Source: an uncultured Chloroflexia bacterium
GTDB lineage: Bacteria; Chloroflexota; Limnocylindria; Limnocylindrales; CSP1-4
Direction: 5' to 3'
Length of the DNA stretch: 64,000 nucleotides
Assembly: GCA_963707215.1 (NCBI GenBank)
Contig: CAVPPB010000003.1
Coordinates: 1,472,001 to 1,536,000, forward strand
Shown: one piece after another, positions 36,218 to 44,917 of the stretch
How positions within the stretch are numbered: the stretch's first letter is position 1
Layout of the letters: each line of letters opens with the position of its first letter
Notes under the pieces: generated by a model
Databases searched by the model: none
Told to the model about the DNA's origin: nothing
Seen by the model: the letters and a program-made list of their open reading frames with translations, nothing else
Program-made: the position numbers and the translations under genes

Positions 36218-39200
36218 TCAGCGGGAGACGGTGAGCCCCAGGCGGATGGCGACGGTCGCCGCCTCGACCCGGCCGGAGACGCCGAGTTTGGCGAGGATGT
36301 TGCCGACGTGCACGCCGACGGTCTTCTGGCTGATGAAGAGCCGATCGCCGATCTCGCGGTTGGTCCGACCCTCGGCCAGGAGCGCGAGCACCTCCCGCTC
36401 GCGGGGGCTCAGCCCGAAGGTATCCGCGGGTGCCGCCGCCCCATCCGCCAGCAGCGTCCTGGTGACCGAGGCGCCGACGCTCTCCGCCGCCGTAGCGGCG
36501 ACCACTGGCCCCGGGCCGACCGGCACCGCGATCGGCTCCGCGGCCACGGCCACCGAACCGACCGGAGCCGCCAGCAACGACTCGACCGTGTCGGCCAGCG
36601 ACTCGGGCAACCGGATGAGGGCTCGACCGGCAAGGTCGCGCAGCTCGCGCAGGAGAGGGAGCGCGCCGAGCTCGCTGGCGATCGTCGTCGCTTCGACCAG
36701 CGCCCCCCGGGCGGCGGGCCGGGCGACCCGGGCGTCGTCGCTCGCGACCAGCGCGGCCTCGGCCTGCCGCCAGCGGGCCTTGGCGGCCTGGTACCGGTCG
36801 CCGATCGCCTCGAGGGCCATCGCCACGGAGGCCCAGGCGCTCGGATCGTCGCGCCCGTCGATCCTGGCGTGGTAGGCCCGCGCGACCATGAGCCGGGCGT
36901 CGGCCTCCCGCCGCGAGCCCAGGCTCGGGTCCACGCCGGCGATCGCCACTGCCTCGGCCGCCTCGCGGAGGACCCGGCCGGCGGTGGTGCGGGCCTCGGC
37001 GATCGTGGCCAGGTCGCGTCGGCGACGGGCATCGGCGACGTCGGCCGCGGCGACTTCGAGGACCGTGGCAGCCAGGCGGGCGATCAGTGCCCAGTCCTCC
37101 GTACCGCGCGCACGCTCCCAGCCGAGGGATGCGGCCCTCCGAGCGTCGACGACATCGTCGCGCCAGAGCGCGAACGACGCGGCCGCCTGGTAGACGGGTG
37201 GCGCGTACTGCGGATCGGGGACCGTCTCGAGGTCGACCAGGAGCTGGCCGAGCAGGCGGTCGGCGACCTCGCCGGCCGTCGATTCGACCTCGATCGTAGC
37301 CAGGTTGATGGCGGCATTCGCCCAGCCGAACCCGGCCGGGTTCCACTCCAGCGAGGATCGGGCCAGGGCGCGAGCCTCGTCCCAGCGACCGAGCAGGAAG
37401 AGGGTGTCGGCCGCGTTCCCGCGGAGCCAGTTGCCGTAGACCGCCTCCTGGCCGACCTCGCGGGCGGCGGCGATCCCCTCCATCGCGACATCCACGGCGG
37501 CTTCGCGCTCACCCATGAGATCGAGGACGGTCGAGTGGTTGGCGTAGGCGCGGAACACCTCATCGAGGCGACCCGATCGGCGAGCCGTCTCGCGGGCCTC
37601 CTCAAGATGGCGGATGCCACGCTCGGGGTCCTCACCCCAGCCCTCCGAGACGCCGAGCGTCGTCAGCGCATGGGCGGACTCGCCGAGGGCGGCGTCGCCG
37701 ACGGCACGGGAGACCTCGAGCGCCTCGTTGGCCAGCACGATGGCCTCCTCGAAGTGGCCCACGAGCATGCGGATCTGAGCCAGTGCCGCCAGGATCCTGG
37801 CGCGTTCGCGACCGGCATCGGGGGGGACCATACGGACGGCTCGGCGAAGTGTCTCCTCCGCTCCATCGCGATCGCCCGCGGTCCATCGGTAGCGCCCCAG
37901 ACGGGCGAGGAGCTTGGCCAGGGCCAGCCGATCCTGGGCTTCGTCAAGCCCTGCCGCGGCCGCCTCCCCGAAGGCCACCGCACGGTCGGCCCCGCCGGCG
38001 GCGAAGGCGGCTCGACCGGCCCGGGCCAGCAGGTCCGAGAGCGAGGCCTCGTCATAGGCCTCGCCTCCGGGCACTGTCAACTCAAGGGCGGCCTCAAGGA
38101 ACGCCAGAGCCTGGTCCGGGGCGTCCAGGGCCTCGGCGGCCGCCGCGGCCGCGACCGCCGCGGGACGTGCCTCGTCCGGGCGGCCGGCCGCGATCCAGTG
38201 GTGCACCGCGATCGCCGGGCGATCCACCGCGGCCTGAGCGAGGGCCGCGTGGAGCCGCGGGCGCTGGTGCGGCAGGAGGTCACCTTCGATGGCGCGGGCG
38301 ACCAGCTCGTGTCGGATGGCGAACCAGGGACCTGGATCGGTCGATCCCAGCGGCGCCGGTCGCTCGACGATGATGCCGTGGTCCAGACCCTCGGCGAGTC
38401 CGGCCGACAGGTCCGGATCCAGCGGTCCCTCGGCCGACCGGGGGGCGGTCGTGGAGCGGGGCGGCGGCCGGTGCCGGCCAGCCTCGAACACCTCGGCCAC
38501 GACCGCGATCTCCGTCCCCGAGACGGGCCGCCCGGCCGGCGCCACGAACCGCAGGAGGCGTCGGCATTCGGGGGACCGGTCGGCCAGGCGAGCCCGGACC
38601 AGGTCTTCCAGCGAGCCGGTGAGCGATGCTCCGGACAGCTCGCGGCGGGCTGCCAGGAGCTCCTCGGCGACGAGCGGGCTGCCAGCCGAGCGCTCCGCGA
38701 CCAGCAGCAACACTGTGGCGCTGGGTCGCTCGCCCTCGATCCCGGTGATGAGCTGGGCCAGCTCGTCACGGTCGAGCGGACCCAGGTGCAGGGTGGCAGG
38801 CGGGCGTGGCGAGCTCTGCATCGCCGCCATGGTCGAGTGGACCGGGTGGTCGCGGTGGAGCGCGTCAGGCTGATAGCTGGCGATGACCGCGATCCGCTGG
38901 CCACGAGAGACCCGCGAGATGAACTCGGCGAACGACCGGGTGGCCGGGTCGGCCCGATGGAGGTCGTCGAGCATCAGGACCACCGGCGATGATTCGGCCA
39001 GGCGGGTCATGATGCCGAAGAGGCCCTCGAGGAGCCGCGACTGGCGGCGCTCGAGGTCCGAGACGAGCGGACGATCGGGCAGCAGGCCGAGCTCGGTGAG
39101 GCGCCGGCCCAGGATCGGCAGGAGTCGGACGAGCTCGCCGCCGTTGGGTCCGACGACGTCGGCCAGGTCACGGTCCGACAAGCGAAGCAGATGCGGCTCG

Positions 39201-39457
39201 AGCCCGGCGACGAGCGGCCCATAGGCCCGCCCGTCAGCAGCCGCATCGGCCTGGCAGCGGACGACCGTGACCGGCTCGCCCTCGAGGGAGAGCCGGCGCG
39301 TGGCTTCCTCGAGGAAGCGGGAGGCCCCGAGCCCGGCATCGGCCGCGATCAGGAGCGTCGTGGGCTCACCCCCCGCCGCGGCCTCGACGACCGCGGCGAG
39401 CCGGGCGAACTCGGCCGCCCGCCCCACGAACCGCGCACTGGCGTACGGCCCGGTCAT
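36218..39457 (-). CDS. LAL/MalT-type AAA-TPR-LuxR transcriptional regulator
   Basis: FVGRAAE, Walker B LDDLHRAD, TPR-like helices, GLSPREREVLALLAEGRTNREIG; probable leaderless ATG 39457. Confidence 0.92.
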   Translation of the reverse strand: MTGPYASARFVGRAAEFARLAAVVEAAAGGEPTTLLIAADAGLGASRFLEEATRRLSLEGEPVTVVRCQADAAADGRAYGPLVAGLEPHLLRLSDRDLADVVGPNGGELVRLLPILGRRLTELGLLPDRPLVSDLERRQSRLLEGLFGIMTRLAESSPVVLMLDDLHRADPATRSFAEFISRVSRGQRIAVIASYQPDALHRDHPVHSTMAAMQSSPRPPATLHLGPLDRDELAQLITGIEGERPSATVLLLVAERSAGSPLVAEELLAARRELSGASLTGSLEDLVRARLADRSPECRRLLRFVAPAGRPVSGTEIAVVAEVFEAGRHRPPPRSTTAPRSAEGPLDPDLSAGLAEGLDHGIIVERPAPLGSTDPGPWFAIRHELVARAIEGDLLPHQRPRLHAALAQAAVDRPAIAVHHWIAAGRPDEARPAAVAAAAAAEALDAPDQALAFLEAALELTVPGGEAYDEASLSDLLARAGRAAFAAGGADRAVAFGEAAAAGLDEAQDRLALAKLLARLGRYRWTAGDRDGAEETLRRAVRMVPPDAGRERARILAALAQIRMLVGHFEEAIVLANEALEVSRAVGDAALGESAHALTTLGVSEGWGEDPERGIRHLEEARETARRSGRLDEVFRAYANHSTVLDLMGEREAAVDVAMEGIAAAREVGQEAVYGNWLRGNAADTLFLLGRWDEARALARSSLEWNPAGFGWANAAINLATIEVESTAGEVADRLLGQLLVDLETVPDPQYAPPVYQAAASFALWRDDVVDARRAASLGWERARGTEDWALIARLAATVLEVAAADVADARRRRDLATIAEARTTAGRVLREAAEAVAIAGVDPSLGSRREADARLMVARAYHARIDGRDDPSAWASVAMALEAIGDRYQAAKARWRQAEAALVASDDARVARPAARGALVEATTIASELGALPLLRELRDLAGRALIRLPESLADTVESLLAAPVGSVAVAAEPIAVPVGPGPVVAATAAESVGASVTRTLLADGAAAPADTFGLSPREREVLALLAEGRTNREIGDRLFISQKTVGVHVGNILAKLGVSGRVEAATVAIRLGLTVSR

Positions 39458-39605
39458 GGCGGCCATTCTACGGGCGCGGTCCGAGCGCTGGTCGGGCCGG
39501 TGGCCACGGAGTCCCCTGCTGACTGCGGGGACGCACCGGCTTCTCGCCGGGCCGACACGGGACGTCGGCGTCGCATCCGCCGTCCAGGGCGGCTAGGCTG
39601 GCCGG

Positions 39606-40538
39606 GTGCAGGAGCGCCGGCCGCCCCATCCCGCGAACGAGCTCAACGAGCTGAGCGGCGAGGAGTGGCTCTACTTCACCAAGTCGGTCTGGTCGACGGC
39701 CTACCCCTCCGAGCTCGGCCACGCGCTCCGGAAGGCCCATGGGGCGAACAAGCCGCCCCGCCTGATGGCCCGCCTGATCGAGTTCTTCACCCGCTCCGGG
39801 GAGCTGGTCCTCGACCCGTTCGCCGGCGTCGGCGGGACGCTGCTGGGGGCGGCGATCGCGCGCGGTCCACGCCGAGCGCTGGGGCTCGAGCTGGACCCTC
39901 GCTGGGCGGCCGTGTACGAGACCGTGCTCGCCGCCGCCCAGGCCGAGCGGGATGGCGCTGGGCCCCTGCTGGCGGATCTCGGGGCGCAGGATCCCGGCGG
40001 CCCGCGGAGCTTCGACCCGTCAGGCCTCGAGCTCAGGGTCGGAGATGCCGTCGAGTTCCTCGCCGAGCTGCCGGACGACGCCGTCGACTTCGTGGCGACC
40101 GATCCGCCGTACAACATCCAGCTGCCGCTGACGATGGCCGGCGGTCCTCTTGCCGAGCGTCACGCGAACCGCCGGACCGACTACGCGATGATCGGCGACG
40201 ACCCGGCCGACCTGGCCAACAGCCCGGACTACGGGACGTACCTCGACCGGATGGAGGGCGTCCTGCGAGAGCTGCACCGGGTCCTGCGGCCTGGCCGCTA
40301 CGCGACCGTCATCGTCCGCGACGCCTACCAGGGTGGTCGCTACCTGTTCACGGCGGCAGACCTCGCGGCCCGGGCGAGCGACGTCGGGTTCGTGCCGAAG
40401 GGGGACCTGGTCTGGTACCAGGCCGGCACCCGGCTCCGCCCGTACGGCTATCCGCGGAGCTTCGTGCCGAACATCGCCCACCAGCACATCCTGGTGCTCC
40501 GCCGGGAAGGTCAGGCGCGGGCCCGGGCGGCCCGGTAG
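39606..40538 (+). CDS. Orphan SAM-dependent amino-methyltransferase (N4C/N6A DNA MTase-like, permuted)
   Basis: HGANKPPRL, VLDPFAGVGGT (motif I), TDPPY (motif IV), RVLRPG. Confidence 0.85.
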   Translation: MQERRPPHPANELNELSGEEWLYFTKSVWSTAYPSELGHALRKAHGANKPPRLMARLIEFFTRSGELVLDPFAGVGGTLLGAAIARGPRRALGLELDPRWAAVYETVLAAAQAERDGAGPLLADLGAQDPGGPRSFDPSGLELRVGDAVEFLAELPDDAVDFVATDPPYNIQLPLTMAGGPLAERHANRRTDYAMIGDDPADLANSPDYGTYLDRMEGVLRELHRVLRPGRYATVIVRDAYQGGRYLFTAADLAARASDVGFVPKGDLVWYQAGTRLRPYGYPRSFVPNIAHQHILVLRREGQARARAAR

Positions 40539-42097
40539 GCGGCGATCACGTCGTCGTCGATGCGCTCGTCATCGAGGTTCCCGGCCGCCGCGTCGGTCGT
40601 GGGCTGCCGGTAGGTCCAGGTCGGCATCGGGCGGGCGGCCGTGAGACGGGCGGCCAGGCCCGGTTCCAGCAGCTCCTCGTCACTCCGCCGGTCCGACCGG
40701 ACATCCTGGTCGCCCTCGACGTCCACCGCGGAGCCGAGCACCATCCGGTGGACCCAGCCTCGATTCCCGTCCGGGCAGAGGACGAGCCAGTAGCTGCCCG
40801 AGCTCTCGCAGAGGGCGACCTCGTCGCCCTCGTCGAGCAGGCCGATCTCGCGGGCCGTGAACTCGTCGGGCGAGTCAAGCAGGCGGACCACCCGATAGCG
40901 GATCCGGCGCCGCTCCAGGTCGTCGTCGAGGGGTACGGCCGCGCTGTCGAAGGTCAGACGAGGGGCCGGCTCGGGCTCGGGAGCGCGCGCGGGATCGTGT
41001 TTGCGGGCCTGAAGAAGGGACGGCCGGCGCCAGCGGGGGATCAGTGCCTCCGGATCCGTCCCGGGCGCTGCCGGTCCCTGTCCGGGCCACGCGGCGACGG
41101 CCATCGCACCGGATGCCAGCGCGGCGTCGGCGGACGCGGCGGCGGACCGCCCGCCCGACGGATCGTCCTCGTCGTCGTCGCGCCGGCGGCCGAAGAGGAG
41201 GAAGGCGGTGACCATCGCCGCACCGCCGATGGTCGAGATGACCACGGAGGTGAATGGATCGGCGACCAGCAAGTCGGGCGGCAACCCTGGGAGCGCCCCC
41301 CGACCGGGGGCGACGGCAGGTCCCGGGACGCGGCGGGTCGGGATGGGCCGCGGGTCACCGGCGGTCGCGGCACTCGGGGGCATCCACCAGCCAGGATCGA
41401 TTGCACCGACAGAGCCGCCCGGGGCCAGGCCTGGATCGCGGGACTCCCCGAAGCGATCCGCGGGCGGGGTCGGGGCCTCGAGAGTCGGTCCGACGAGTGC
41501 CGTGGGAGCGTTGGTGGGCTCCGGCTGAGGTGGGGCGGGGGCGTCGATCGCGGACCCGCCGCCGGCGTCCGGGGGGCTGAACACAGCCGGCGGCGGAGGC
41601 GCCGGGGTCGCGGGCGGCGGCGGCTTCGTCGTACCGCCGCCCGAGCCACTGTCGCCGGGCGTCGGCGCCGGAGCCGGGGGCGGCGTGACGGTCATCCAGC
41701 CATCGTCGAGCTCGCCGACGGCGCCCTCCGGATCGACCGCCACGTAGTGGACGTCGAGCTTGCCGGCCGGCGGGGAGGCTACGGCCATGTAGATGACGCC
41801 CTTGCGGACGTTCCCGTCGGCGCCGGCCGGGGCCATCGCGTAGCTCACCGGACCGACCCGGACCACGACCGACACGGGATCGAGGCCACCGCGATGGCGG
41901 TACTCGATCCGGAACGTCACGGGTTCGCCGGCCGCCGACGACCGATCCGAGACCGATGGCTGCGAGAGCCGGATCGGGCTCGGGGCGGCGCCCAGCGAGG
42001 GTCCGACCGCGACGAGGACCAGGACCAGCGCCGCCGACCATGCGACGGCCAGGCCCCGGACCCCACCCGGGGCCGGGGGGCGATGGATGAGACCCAT
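40511..42097 (-). CDS. Membrane-anchored Pro-rich protein with C-terminal SH3-like domain
   Basis: Signal peptide, beta domain, Pro linker, TM+RRR, then IGLLDEGDEV...YWLVLCPDGNRGWVH. Confidence 0.7.
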   Translation of the reverse strand: MGLIHRPPAPGGVRGLAVAWSAALVLVLVAVGPSLGAAPSPIRLSQPSVSDRSSAAGEPVTFRIEYRHRGGLDPVSVVVRVGPVSYAMAPAGADGNVRKGVIYMAVASPPAGKLDVHYVAVDPEGAVGELDDGWMTVTPPPAPAPTPGDSGSGGGTTKPPPPATPAPPPPAVFSPPDAGGGSAIDAPAPPQPEPTNAPTALVGPTLEAPTPPADRFGESRDPGLAPGGSVGAIDPGWWMPPSAATAGDPRPIPTRRVPGPAVAPGRGALPGLPPDLLVADPFTSVVISTIGGAAMVTAFLLFGRRRDDDEDDPSGGRSAAASADAALASGAMAVAAWPGQGPAAPGTDPEALIPRWRRPSLLQARKHDPARAPEPEPAPRLTFDSAAVPLDDDLERRRIRYRVVRLLDSPDEFTAREIGLLDEGDEVALCESSGSYWLVLCPDGNRGWVHRMVLGSAVDVEGDQDVRSDRRSDEELLEPGLAARLTAARPMPTWTYRQPTTDAAAGNLDDERIDDDVIAAYRAARARA

Positions 42098-42340
42098 CGG
42101 ATGATGCCTCCGCGCCGAGCGATAGGTGCTCGACACGGACCGAGGATGGGCGGCGGGTGGCGGGTGGGCAATGGTACGGGGGTCCCGCCCGGCCGGGGCC
42201 ATCGGGCAAGCGCCCCGAGCGGATGGGTGCGGTCAGCATCGGTCCGGGGCGGAGCCGTGGCGTCCGGGCGTCGAACGGATGCCAGGGCTGGTCCGATTCG
42301 GCTATCCCGGGAGCCGGGGGCGGCGCCCGATGATGCCGTC

Positions 42341-43102
42341 ATGCCGGTCCTCGTCGCGTCCCGCGACCGCTCCGTCGCGCGCTCATTCGCGAGCGCGTTC
42401 GTTGGTCTGACGGTCGGCACGATCCTCCTTGGGGGAGGGATCCTGCTCGGCTACCTGCTGCTGACCGCCGGGATCGTGGAGCGGTTCGCCGTGCCGCCGC
42501 GGCCGAGCCCCGTGGAGATGGCCGCCGGCGTGCTCGCCTGGACCTTCGCGCTCGTGGTACCGGCCGGGTTCGCGGTGATCGGGGCCCTCCGGCTCCTCGA
42601 CACGATCGGCGTCAGCAGGCACCGACCGCGGATCCGCCCGGCGGCCCGCGTAGCCCATGCGATGCCCGACGATCACCTTGTCGCATCGCGTGTCCGCCTG
42701 CCGGATGGCCGGCTGGTGCCGGAGCTGATCGTGGGTCCGTTCGGGGTCGTGGTCGTCGGCGAGCTGCCGCCGGCGGGCGCATCACGCCACAGCGGCGGGC
42801 GCTGGGAGGTCCGGGTCGAGCGCGGGCGCTGGGTCCCGATCGAGAACCCGCTCGACCGGACCAGCCGTGACGCCGAGCGGGTCCGCCGATGGCTCGGCTC
42901 GGACGACAGCGATCACGTGGTCCGCGTCCATGCCGTGCTGATCGATCCAGACCGACGGGTCGAGCGGACGCCGACCTGCGCCGTCACGACGGCCCAGGAG
43001 CTGCCGGCCTGGCTGGCGTCGCTGCCGGCCCAGCGCTCGTTCGTGGCGGATCGCCAGGCCCGGGTGGCGGATACGGTGCGCGCTTCCCTCGACGGAGGCT
43101 GA
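42341..43102 (+). CDS. Two-TM membrane protein with NERD-like domain
   Basis: ELIVGPFGVVVV, GRWE, ENPLDR..RDAERVRRWL; 3' part of a long shadow ORF. Confidence 0.65.
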   Translation: MPVLVASRDRSVARSFASAFVGLTVGTILLGGGILLGYLLLTAGIVERFAVPPRPSPVEMAAGVLAWTFALVVPAGFAVIGALRLLDTIGVSRHRPRIRPAARVAHAMPDDHLVASRVRLPDGRLVPELIVGPFGVVVVGELPPAGASRHSGGRWEVRVERGRWVPIENPLDRTSRDAERVRRWLGSDDSDHVVRVHAVLIDPDRRVERTPTCAVTTAQELPAWLASLPAQRSFVADRQARVADTVRASLDGG

Positions 43103-43116
43103 GGCCGGGCCGAGGC

Positions 43117-43192
43117 TGGTAGGGGAGCCAGGATTCGAACCTGGGACCGCCCGGATATAAGCCGGGTGCTCTAACCGCTGAGCTACTCCCCC
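43117..43192 (-). tRNA. tRNA-Ile with anticodon TAT (UAU)
   Basis: GGGGGAG TA GCTC AGCGGTTA GAGC A CCCGG CTTATAT CCGGG CGGTC CCAGG TTCGAAT CCTGG CTCCCCT A CCA; full 76-nt cloverleaf with encoded CCA. Confidence 0.95.
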
Positions 43193-43250
43193 ATCGGACG
43201 CCTGGCAGGGCCAAGCCCAGGGCATCGTACCCCCGGATGCCAGCGCAGCT

Positions 43251-44060
43251 CTACCCGAGCGAGCGCATCGGCGGAAGGCGGCGACCACCCAGGACCCGGA
43301 CGGAGACGAGCACGACCATCGCGGCGACGATCAGGACGGCGGCGGCCGCGACCGCCGCGTCGAGACTGCCAGCGAACTCGGCGTAGACGAGCAGGGGCAG
43401 CGTCTGGGTGAGTCCCGGCAGGCTGCCGGCCAGCAGGATGGTCGCCCCGAACTCGCCGAGCGCACGGGCCCAGGCGGTCACGAGGGCCGCCGCCAGGGCC
43501 GATGACGTCAGTGGCAGGTCGATCCGGCGAAGGGTCTCGAGTTCACCCGCACCATCGACACGGGCCGCATCCTCGATGTCGCGGTCGACGCCGGCCAGCG
43601 CGGCGCGGGCGGCCCGGACGAAGATCGGGCCGGCGACGAAGACCTGGGCGACGACGACGGCCGCGGTCGTGAACGGGATGACGATCCCGAGGTCCGCCAG
43701 CAGCGTGCCGAGCGCCCCCTGGCTGCCGAGGACCAGCAGGAGGGCCAGACCGGCGACGACCGGGGGCAGGACGACCGGCAGGTCGACGATCGTCTCCACG
43801 AGGATCGCGCCCGGGATCCGGCGACGTGCCAGCAGGAAGGCCAGCGGCACACCCAGGAGGACGACGACGACGATGGACACGGCGGTCGTGGCCAGGCTCA
43901 GCCCAAGGGCGACGAGGACGTCGGAGCGGACGGCCACGTCGGCCAGGAAGCCGCCGAGGACCGCCCGGCCGAGCAGGGCCACGATCGGCAAGGCCAGGAA
44001 GGTCAGGAGGAGGCCGGCCGGGATGGCCAGGGCGAGCTCGGTCGGGATCGAGCGCCGCAT
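43251..44060 (-). CDS. modB: Molybdate ABC transporter permease
   Basis: DLPVVLPPVVAGLALL, EDAARVDGA, WARALGEFGAT, TQTLPL. Confidence 0.93.
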   Translation of the reverse strand: MRRSIPTELALAIPAGLLLTFLALPIVALLGRAVLGGFLADVAVRSDVLVALGLSLATTAVSIVVVVLLGVPLAFLLARRRIPGAILVETIVDLPVVLPPVVAGLALLLVLGSQGALGTLLADLGIVIPFTTAAVVVAQVFVAGPIFVRAARAALAGVDRDIEDAARVDGAGELETLRRIDLPLTSSALAAALVTAWARALGEFGATILLAGSLPGLTQTLPLLVYAEFAGSLDAAVAAAAVLIVAAMVVLVSVRVLGGRRLPPMRSLG

Positions 44061-44917
44061 CAGCCCGGCCCGCCGAAGCCGAACCCGGCGATGATCGTTC
44101 GTGCCTCCTCGCTCGCCAGCCAGTCGACGAAGTCGGCCGTGAGTTCCGGGTCGGCGGCACGGGCGAGCGCGACGGCCACATACGTGGCGACGACGGAGGC
44201 TGTATCGGGCAGCGGGACCTCGCGCACGGCCGGGCGGTCACGGAGGTCCGTGGAGTAGACGAAGCCCGCGTCCCCCTCGCCCAGCTCGAGCTTGGTGACC
44301 ACCGCCCGGACGTTCGCCTCTTCGCTCACGACGTTGGCAGCCACACGGGCCGCGAAGTCCGCCGGGGCGCCCGGGAGCGCGGCCAGCCGGCCGACGACCT
44401 CGGACCCGTAGCGAGCGATCGGGACCGCCGGGGCTGCTGCCACGATCCGGACGCCATCGTCGGCGAGGTCCCAGGGATCGGCGACGGACGACCCCCGGGA
44501 CGGGACCGCGAGGACCACCCGAGCGGTCGCGAAGTCGCGCGCGGCGGTCGCCGTCAGCCCGGCAGCCGCGAGCGGCTCGACCTCGGCAGGACTGGCAGGG
44601 GCGAAGATATCGGCCGGCGCGCCCTGCTCGATCTGGACCCGCAGCGTCGACGAGGCGTCCGACGCCACCACGACCGTGACCCCCGGGTGACCGGCTTCGT
44701 ACTCGGTGGCCAGCGCCGCGACGAGGTCACGGAGCGACGACGCCGCGAAGACCGTCAGTCGGGGACCGGCCAGGCCATCGGAACAGCCGGCGAGGGTGAC
44801 CGCCGCTGCCAGCACGACCGCGGCGACCATCGGGCGTGACCTGTCGGATCGGCCCCGATCCGGCCGGCCCGGGTCGCTGGCACCCCTGGCCGGCCGCCGC
44901 GGGGGCGGCCAGGTCAT
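44060..44917 (-). CDS. modA: Molybdate ABC transporter substrate-binding lipoprotein (start may be 44830)
   Basis: LAGC lipobox, VFAASSL, ASSTLRVQIEQGAPADIF, VPIARY, NVRAVV, GFVYSTD. Confidence 0.92.
   Translation of the reverse strand: MTWPPPRRPARGASDPGRPDRGRSDRSRPMVAAVVLAAAVTLAGCSDGLAGPRLTVFAASSLRDLVAALATEYEAGHPGVTVVVASDASSTLRVQIEQGAPADIFAPASPAEVEPLAAAGLTATAARDFATARVVLAVPSRGSSVADPWDLADDGVRIVAAAPAVPIARYGSEVVGRLAALPGAPADFAARVAANVVSEEANVRAVVTKLELGEGDAGFVYSTDLRDRPAVREVPLPDTASVVATYVAVALARAADPELTADFVDWLASEEARTIIAGFGFGGPG

Follow-up and report, generated by a model that had tools for sequence, protein, structure and literature searches.

The 76-nt gene at positions 43117–43192 (minus strand) of the window, by which we mean the whole 64-kb stretch of DNA analyzed here, very probably encodes the only AUA-reading tRNA of the cell, namely, an isoleucine tRNA with a DNA-encoded UAU anticodon that has replaced the lost tilS gene and tRNA-Ile2(CAU). 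With UAU encoded directly, the tRNA can do without lysidine formation by TilS. Judged by gene content, the comparison of genomes shows that tilS and the lysidine-dependent tRNA-Ile2(CAU) were both lost in the common ancestor of the window's order, and that this ancestor kept tRNA(UAU) under purifying selection. An earlier note on this DNA had proposed TilS-independent decoding of AUA, and this proposal is supported by our data: tilS and a second elongator-type CAU tRNA are missing from the genome, TilS is also absent from all 80 distinct genomes of the order and from the syntenic locus, and the same UAU tRNA is carried by relatives.

The tRNA-Ile(UAU) gene and its genomic context

ARAGORN identifies one tRNA in the 64-kb window, tRNA-Ile with the anticodon tat at position 34, and the Rfam tRNA family RF00005 matches it with 72.8 bits (gathering score 29, E 5.4e-14). 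The cloverleaf is formed by G1-U72 and six more acceptor pairs, the D-stem GCUC/GAGC, and an anticodon stem of five pairs, and it ends in A73 and an encoded CCA. The anticodon UAU occupies positions 43157–43159 (minus strand; ATA on the plus strand) within the loop C32-U33-U34-A35-U36-A37-U38. The cloverleaf, the anticodon, G1-U72, A73, and the CCA had all been described correctly in the earlier note, to which we add the strand. The assignment to Ile is based on the anticodon and on codon positions. The single-sequence fold of the tRNA is unremarkable (z -1.73, with 10 of 200 shuffles folding equally well), and hence it is not the fold energy but the comparison with 42 distinct orthologues with covarying stems that identifies this tRNA as real and selected.

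An upstream -10 element, TACGAT, had also been suggested. The hexamer is indeed present at positions 43224–43229 (minus strand), 31 nt before the 5' end of the mature tRNA, but its interpretation as a promoter element is unsupported, as the consensus promoter scan yields no promoter-like site in the interval 42900–43500.

Upstream of the tRNA, on the same strand, lie the gene of an ABC transporter permease (43251–44060; Pfam BPD_transp_1, 58.5 bits) and, in the same transporter operon, the gene of a solute-binding protein (44060–44917, minus strand; Pfam SBP_bac_11, 157.5 bits). The convergent neighbour on the other side (42341–43102, plus strand; GC3 0.88–0.90) encodes a protein of about 253 aa that contains hydrophobic segments and matches no Pfam family, and the last ~200 aa of its product adjoin the tRNA in 18 of the 54 related loci. 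According to the Pfam matches of the neighbours, there is no integrase, phage or transposase gene near tRNA(UAU), nor is there a candidate modification enzyme among the adjoining genes, and the GC content is even across the region (0.71–0.78). Given the even GC content, a transporter operon and a membrane protein as neighbours, and the downstream neighbour common to a third of the loci, the earlier suggestion of a resident gene holds.

Contigs from four metagenome runs that span 42500–43800 are 88–99% alike and cover the tRNA, each run matching a small share of the stretch; among the differences listed for these contigs, none is at 43157–43159, with 92 further differences outside the list.

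Two other frames in this part of the window deserve a comment. The 1303-aa open reading frame 39191–43102 (plus strand), at the end of which the convergent neighbour is located, is mostly a high-GC artefact with an arginine-rich translation and GC3 below GC1, coding-like GC3 being confined to the last ~253 codons (42341–43102). Positions 36218–39466 (minus strand) encode a large LuxR-family regulator of 1082 aa with an AAA_16 ATPase domain, TPR repeats, and a GerE DNA-binding domain.

TilS and CAU tRNAs in the window genome

The genome that contains the window (G000) is a five-contig assembly of 3.26 Mb with 71–72% GC and 84.8% completeness, the window being situated on contig C3. Its relatives with IleRS identity of 71–89% are metagenome-assembled genomes (MAGs) labelled Candidatus Limnocylindrales, Chloroflexota or Chloroflexia.

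TilS was not found in this genome, the best score with the TIGR02432 model being 20.5 bits at the cut-off of 93.6. The open reading frame behind this score is not TilS but a WbuX-type N-acetyl sugar amidotransferase (218.4 bits, cut-off 203.2). The PP-loop family PF01171 has no matches in the genome, compared with matches in 14 out of 14 control genomes; as the genome, 84.8% complete, has no PF01171 PP-loop protein at all, it also has no TtcA-type enzyme. A tblastn search of the genome with TilS open reading frames of the sister families (E <= 1e-3) gave no match to the TilS domain; one match of 80 bits comes from an SSB-like stretch at the front of the open frame of the query and not from the TilS domain. 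Since the assembly is incomplete, absence from this one genome is no proof, and the argument rests on relatives and synteny.

ARAGORN makes 52 tRNA calls in the whole genome, including one Ile(GAU), one Ile(UAU), and only two CAU tRNAs. The first of the latter is the initiator, marked by C1xA72 and by three G-C pairs at the base of the anticodon stem, and the second is an elongator, leaving no second elongator-type CAU tRNA that could serve as Ile2. TiaS, the archaeal counterpart of TilS, was not found either, as PF08489 has no match in the genome and matches all four archaeal controls. As for U34-modifying enzymes, MnmA is present, MnmG was not found, and MnmE has no match over the cut-off in this 84.8% complete genome.

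Five ARAGORN calls, four of 90–96 nt without CCA, which are counted among the 52, and one with a two-base anticodon (C1:820929, C2:362031, C3:561327, C3:1387657, C1:225137), are probably false positives, since all other tRNAs of the genome encode CCA. The genome also contains tRNA-SeC (C3:1213406–1213504) and tmRNA (C4:94015–94389).

The syntenic tilS locus

In the sister families f3 and f4, the gene order is tRNA(CAU), tilS, and a conserved gene of no Pfam family (loci L124–L129), and in f3 the initiator tRNA lies about 600 bp further on. In the window genome, the tRNA(CAU) (C3:240901–240975) and the conserved gene (C3:239410–240474, plus strand; GC3 0.95; 82% identity over 216 aa) are 426 bp apart, without tilS, and TilS queries produce only noise between them (best E 0.03). 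As both flanking genes are present at this short distance, the absence of tilS is a deletion in assembled DNA rather than an assembly gap.

The tRNA(CAU) adjacent to tilS was considered as a candidate for tRNA-Ile2 and rejected: the retained tRNA(CAU) of the window genome, its sole elongator CAU tRNA, coincides letter-for-letter with the tRNA beside tilS in f4, where the latter is multi-copy. This identity and the multiple copies lead us to read it as the Met elongator. The likelier candidate for the lost tRNA-Ile2 is a single-copy CAU tRNA with the GGGCCC or CGGCCC acceptor. In E. coli, the determinants recognized by TilS are C4-G69 and C5-G68, and the assignment is based on these.

Distribution in the order and the class

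The window's order comprises family f1, to which the window belongs, and family f2 with genomes of about 1.1 Mb; families f3, f4, and f5 belong to the same class. We considered 151 genomes of the class, accepting TilS matches at E <= 1e-6 and searching for the UAU tRNA with a pattern composed of the D-arm and the CTTATA anticodon loop, whose reversed version, used as a control, has no matches in the class sample. TilS is found in none of 44 f1 and six f2 genomes, and the UAU pattern is present in 39 and five of them, respectively, in addition to the window genome. The sister families demonstrate the opposite: TilS is present in 45 out of 49 genomes in f3, 47 out of 50 in f4, and in the only f5 genome, and the UAU pattern is found in none of them. 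Overall, this gives TilS in 0/50 and the UAU tRNA in 44/50 genomes of the order vs. 93/100 and 0/100 in the sister families. The counts for f3 and f4 include unpublished genomes (G136, G142, G099, G122, G153, G127, G118), all of them on the TilS-positive side, and the contrast is independent of them.

The absence of TilS from the order is also seen with the curated cut-off, exceeded in none of the 41 genomes of the order sample, and in the larger set of 80 distinct genomes (63 from f1, the window genome, and 16 from f2), many of which are 90–97% complete and none of which has TilS over the cut-off. The UAU pattern is present in 43 out of 49 order genomes with at least 90% completeness in the class sample. 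It was not found in five f1 genomes and one f2 genome; at the level of genera, each of the 13 f1 genera in the sample has orthologues of the UAU tRNA, as does the f2 genus. A BLAST search with the tRNA itself under-counts the f2 orthologues (4/16 vs. 5/6 by the pattern).

The CAU tRNAs behave accordingly. The respective pattern detects exactly one elongator-type tRNA in 42 out of 45 f1 genomes, the other three having identical duplicates, and two or more matches in 88 out of 100 genomes of f3, f4, and f5; the pattern misses the Met tRNA of f2 altogether (0/6).

Conservation of the tRNA

The alignment of orthologues consists of 42 distinct sequences from f1 and f2. Positions C32, U33, U34, A35, U36, and A37 are invariant in all of them, position 38 is either U or C, and A73 and CCA are invariant as well. 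The acceptor stem in the window's order is GGGGG-rich, and it begins with a G-U pair (1-72) in 36 sequences and with G-C in the other six. The cloverleaf is retained throughout, with 98.9% of cells paired and compensatory changes in 11 out of 21 pairs; double changes are observed in all five pairs of the anticodon stem and in four out of five pairs of the T-stem. The covariation score is reached by none of 500 shuffles, and sliding the partners lowers the pairing to 39–56%. Taken together, the covarying stems and the invariant anticodon loop indicate that this is a working tRNA under purifying selection with the anticodon held fixed.

The combination C32/U38 is seen in only one of 51 tRNAs of the window genome, although a pyrimidine at position 38 occurs in others. 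The 32-38 pair tunes ribosome binding, and given this role, the conserved context of C32 and a pyrimidine at 38 is a candidate for limiting the misreading of AUG. With respect to its origin, the tRNA is only 58–74% identical to the CAU tRNAs of the sister families, Ile(GAU), and the Met elongator, a range that singles out no parent.

IleRS of the window genome and its relatives

One IleRS of the window genome exceeds the TIGR00392 cut-off (630 bits), other matches being far below it. According to Pfam, this protein has the DUF5915 C-terminus and lacks the zinc-finger C-terminus of type-1 enzymes, and it is far more similar to the type-2 (eukaryote-like) structures 8c8w (595 bits) and 1ile (555 bits) than to the type-1 structure 1ffy (204 bits). 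By these features, it is classified as type 2 ("eukaryote-like"). The type-2 enzyme is present in 150 of the 151 class genomes, those of TilS-positive families among them, and also in several TilS-positive control species; hence, type-2 IleRS alone cannot explain the loss of TilS.

Comparison of 21 TilS-less and 20 TilS-positive IleRS sequences reveals six fully separating columns, one of which, in the C-terminal domain, contains R or K (residue 974 in G000) in the TilS-less sequences vs. V, T, G, S or A in the TilS-positive ones. None of the six is common to f27 or f56, the two other TilS-less families discussed below, so R/K974 is a lead only, and the separating columns may reflect shared ancestry alone.

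Usage and meaning of AUA

AUA is extremely rare: in a crude set of 2001 long open reading frames with a GC3 signal, a filter that is biased against AT-ending codons, it accounts for 147 of 794,819 codons (0.185 per 1000) and occurs in 139 genes. In IleRS genes, the usage of AUA shows no clear difference between TilS-less and TilS-positive families (15 per 14,000 codons in f1, 7 per 9,000 in f3, and 0 per 10,000 in f4).

Alignments agree on the meaning of the codon. The well-occupied columns of an alignment of 75 IleRS genes contain eight AUA codons, six of them in Ile, Leu or Val columns (three of these Ile-majority), and the remaining two in variable columns, with none in a Met column. AUA codons of relatives aligned to proteins of the window genome correspond to Ile (9), Val (4), Leu (3), Ala (2), Asp (1), and Cys (1), and never to Met (n = 20); if only the order loci are considered, the numbers are nine for Ile, three for Val, two for Leu, three for others, and again zero for Met (n = 17). 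The profile of AUA resembles those of ATT and ATC, not that of ATG, which is aligned to Met in 1828 out of 2306 cases. These samples are small (n = 8, 20, 17), with three to four AUA codons at non-aliphatic positions in each by our tally, but they agree in suggesting that AUA means isoleucine.

In several genomes (loci L044–L123, alignment column 219), an ATA triplet is kept just upstream of the IleRS start within the stop-to-stop frame; it is probably a piece of a non-coding upstream element rather than a codon.

Proposed mechanism and alternative explanations

In the reading we prefer, the single type-2 IleRS of the genome would charge tRNA(UAU), and U34 would pair with the A of AUA. Misreading of AUG would be tolerable via competition with tRNA-Met; the very low use of AUA would allow for a low tRNA level, which would limit such misreading, and the unusual, conserved combination of C32 and a pyrimidine at 38 in the loop could limit it as well.

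One alternative is quite possible, although we would not expect it to hold, namely, that the tRNA and the loss of TilS are as described, but U34 is enzymatically modified (to pseudouridine or otherwise) so that it reads AUA and not AUG, in which case the novelty would lie in the modifying enzyme. Eukaryotic tRNA-Ile(UAU) carries pseudouridine at U34, and the IleRS considered here is of the eukaryote-like type. Moreover, unmodified U34 can read G by general wobble rules (PMC13752280), and it has been suggested that bacteria with the eukaryote-like IleRS might recognize modified UAU (Taniguchi et al., 2013; PMC3575796). Yet UAU of Mycoplasma mobile is unmodified and nonetheless specific (PMC3575796). 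Nor does the genome offer an obvious enzyme: of the pathway by which bacteria usually modify U34, MnmG was not found and MnmE has no match above the cut-off, and no candidate gene adjoins the tRNA. MnmA is present, but its substrates have U35, which tRNA(UAU) lacks. Our best guess is that U34 is either unmodified or modified by something other than MnmE/MnmG.

The remaining alternatives would deprive the tRNA of its proposed role. The genes tilS and tRNA-Ile2(CAU) might reside in the unassembled 15% of the MAG, making the UAU tRNA an extra one, as in Lactobacillus with both; the completeness of 84.8% leaves room for this, and coexistence does occur, as 10 of 355 TilS-positive Chloroflexota genomes have the UAU-pattern tRNA, but given no TilS over the cut-off in the 80 distinct genomes of the order, the syntenic locus assembled without tilS, and the single elongator-type CAU tRNA in 42 of the 45 f1 genomes, we consider it very improbable. 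To a similar extent we doubt that AUA has been reassigned (for instance to Met, which it encodes in some mitochondria) or has in effect no assignment, with the tRNA carrying another amino acid. The extreme rarity of the codon is a setting in which reassignment can happen; still, AUA aligns with Ile, Val, and Leu, and never with Met, in the manner of ATT and ATC rather than ATG, the discriminator A73 fits Ile, and MetRS depends on C34. It is hardly credible that the tRNA is a recent horizontal or mobile-element acquisition, or a decaying copy without a role. tRNA genes commonly serve as cargo and integration sites of mobile elements, and the synteny around this gene is only partial, being seen in 18 of 54 loci; but integrase and phage genes do not flank it, GC is even, and the orthologues spread over all 13 f1 genera and the f2 genus have compensatory stem changes and an invariant anticodon loop. 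Thus, the replacement of tilS and tRNA-Ile2(CAU) by tRNA(UAU) remains the preferred reading.

Comparison with known systems

The canonical lysidine system, composed of TilS and tRNA-Ile2(CAU), does the same job of reading AUA as Ile and is still used by the sister families, but both its components are missing in the window genome. The archaeal agmatidine system differs as well, since TiaS was not found.

Bacteria that read AUA with an encoded UAU anticodon have been described previously. Bifidobacterium and Neorickettsia have a TAT tRNA gene, no tilS, and a eukaryote-like IleRS, which was proposed to charge the UAU tRNA (Taniguchi et al., 2013; PMC3575796). The window genome is similar to them in the encoded TAT, the absence of tilS, type-2 IleRS as the only IleRS, and its DUF5915 C-terminus, and from the genes alone, it would be assigned to this subtype. 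It differs in the phylum, Chloroflexota, and in the genomes of 3 Mb with 72% GC, and here a whole order is affected, together with two more families whose UAU tRNAs look separate; the organisms of the window's order are taken to be free-living. In M. mobile, IleRS is type 1 with a Trp-to-Arg change, U34 was found to be unmodified by mass spectrometry, and the ribosome discriminates AUA from AUG (PMC3575796). The window genome shares with M. mobile the UAU anticodon for AUA without lysidine and the absence of tilS, but its IleRS is type 2 and not the type-1 enzyme with Arg that defines the M. mobile system, and hence the Trp-to-Arg residue is not applicable here. A mixed state has been reported for Lactobacillus casei and L. 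plantarum, where tilS is found together with a tRNA-Ile(TAT) gene (PMC3575796); it is resembled by the ten TilS-positive Chloroflexota genomes with the UAU-pattern tRNA, e.g., G521. The window genome, having no tilS, represents the end state rather than a mixed state of the L. casei type.

Genes of TAT tRNA-Ile were counted in nine species from three clades in 2013 (PMC3575796) and in 19 species in 2014 (PMC4013482), and tRNA-Ile(UAU) was still referred to as "rare cases" in October 2026 (PMC13752280). Our full-text literature search retrieved no paper joining tilS or lysidine with Chloroflexi, Chloroflexota or Limnocylindria, its scope being article texts; the supplements of PMC3575796, with the species list and a mention of 371 metagenomic TAT tDNAs, might bear on this. 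Thus, the class of mechanism is known from M. mobile, Bifidobacterium, and Neorickettsia, and Chloroflexota are new lineages for it.

These lineages are of interest in several respects. An entire order of Chloroflexota from soil and fresh water, represented mainly by environmental MAGs, has lost TilS, as have two more families, and the TilS-positive close sister families, along with repeated, apparently independent replacements in one phylum, provide a natural before-and-after comparison. With it, one can ask how the tRNA, IleRS, and ribosome change when an anticodon with U34 is to avoid AUG, whether type-2 IleRS permits the loss of TilS, and whether this loss is made possible by the extreme rarity of AUA. 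The usual description of TilS is that of a conserved, essential enzyme found in nearly all bacteria; the observed losses bear on annotation and on proposals of TilS as a universal drug target.

TilS replacement in other families of Chloroflexota

Among 401 Chloroflexota genomes, TilS is present in 355 and the UAU pattern, in 48; as these genomes are related to one another, the counts do not represent independent events. The UAU pattern is found in 38 of the 46 TilS-negative genomes (22 from f1, four from f2, seven out of seven from f27, four out of four from f56, and G294) and in 10 of the 355 TilS-positive ones; the f56 count includes the unpublished genome G485, without which it is three out of three.

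The UAU tRNAs of f27 and f56 are unlike those of the window's order: their acceptor, GGGCCC or CGGCCC, resembles that of the CAU tRNA presumed to be Ile2 in other families, and position 38 is A; IleRS is type 2 in both families (five out of five genomes examined). The TilS-positive genome G521 (locus L179, 1341–1566) has a tRNA(CAU) with the GGGCCC acceptor and, 75 nt behind it, a tRNA(UAU) whose anticodon stem is identical. This tandem may represent a duplicate-and-mutate intermediate that precedes the loss of TilS.

We read these data as pointing to at least three separate replacements of TilS in the phylum, with the most remodelled tRNA in the window's order; how the events followed one another is our reconstruction. 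A more specific scenario seems to us rather doubtful, and we offer it tentatively: at least three replacements of TilS by an encoded UAU tRNA (in the window's order, f27, and f56) may all have occurred on the background of type-2 IleRS, the tRNA of f27 and f56 being a C34-to-U copy of Ile2(CAU), and the remodelled tRNA of the window's order (the GGGGG-rich acceptor, G1-U72, C32/pyrimidine 38), combined with a basic residue at IleRS position 974, might constitute a structural solution for reading AUA and not AUG that is unlike that of M. mobile.

The G1-U72 pair recurs in UAU tRNAs of separate lineages, being observed in 36 out of 42 sequences from the window's order, five out of five from f27 (L238–L242), and the G521 copy (L179). 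CAU tRNAs with similar acceptors have G1-C72, and the UAU tRNAs of f56, C1-G72.
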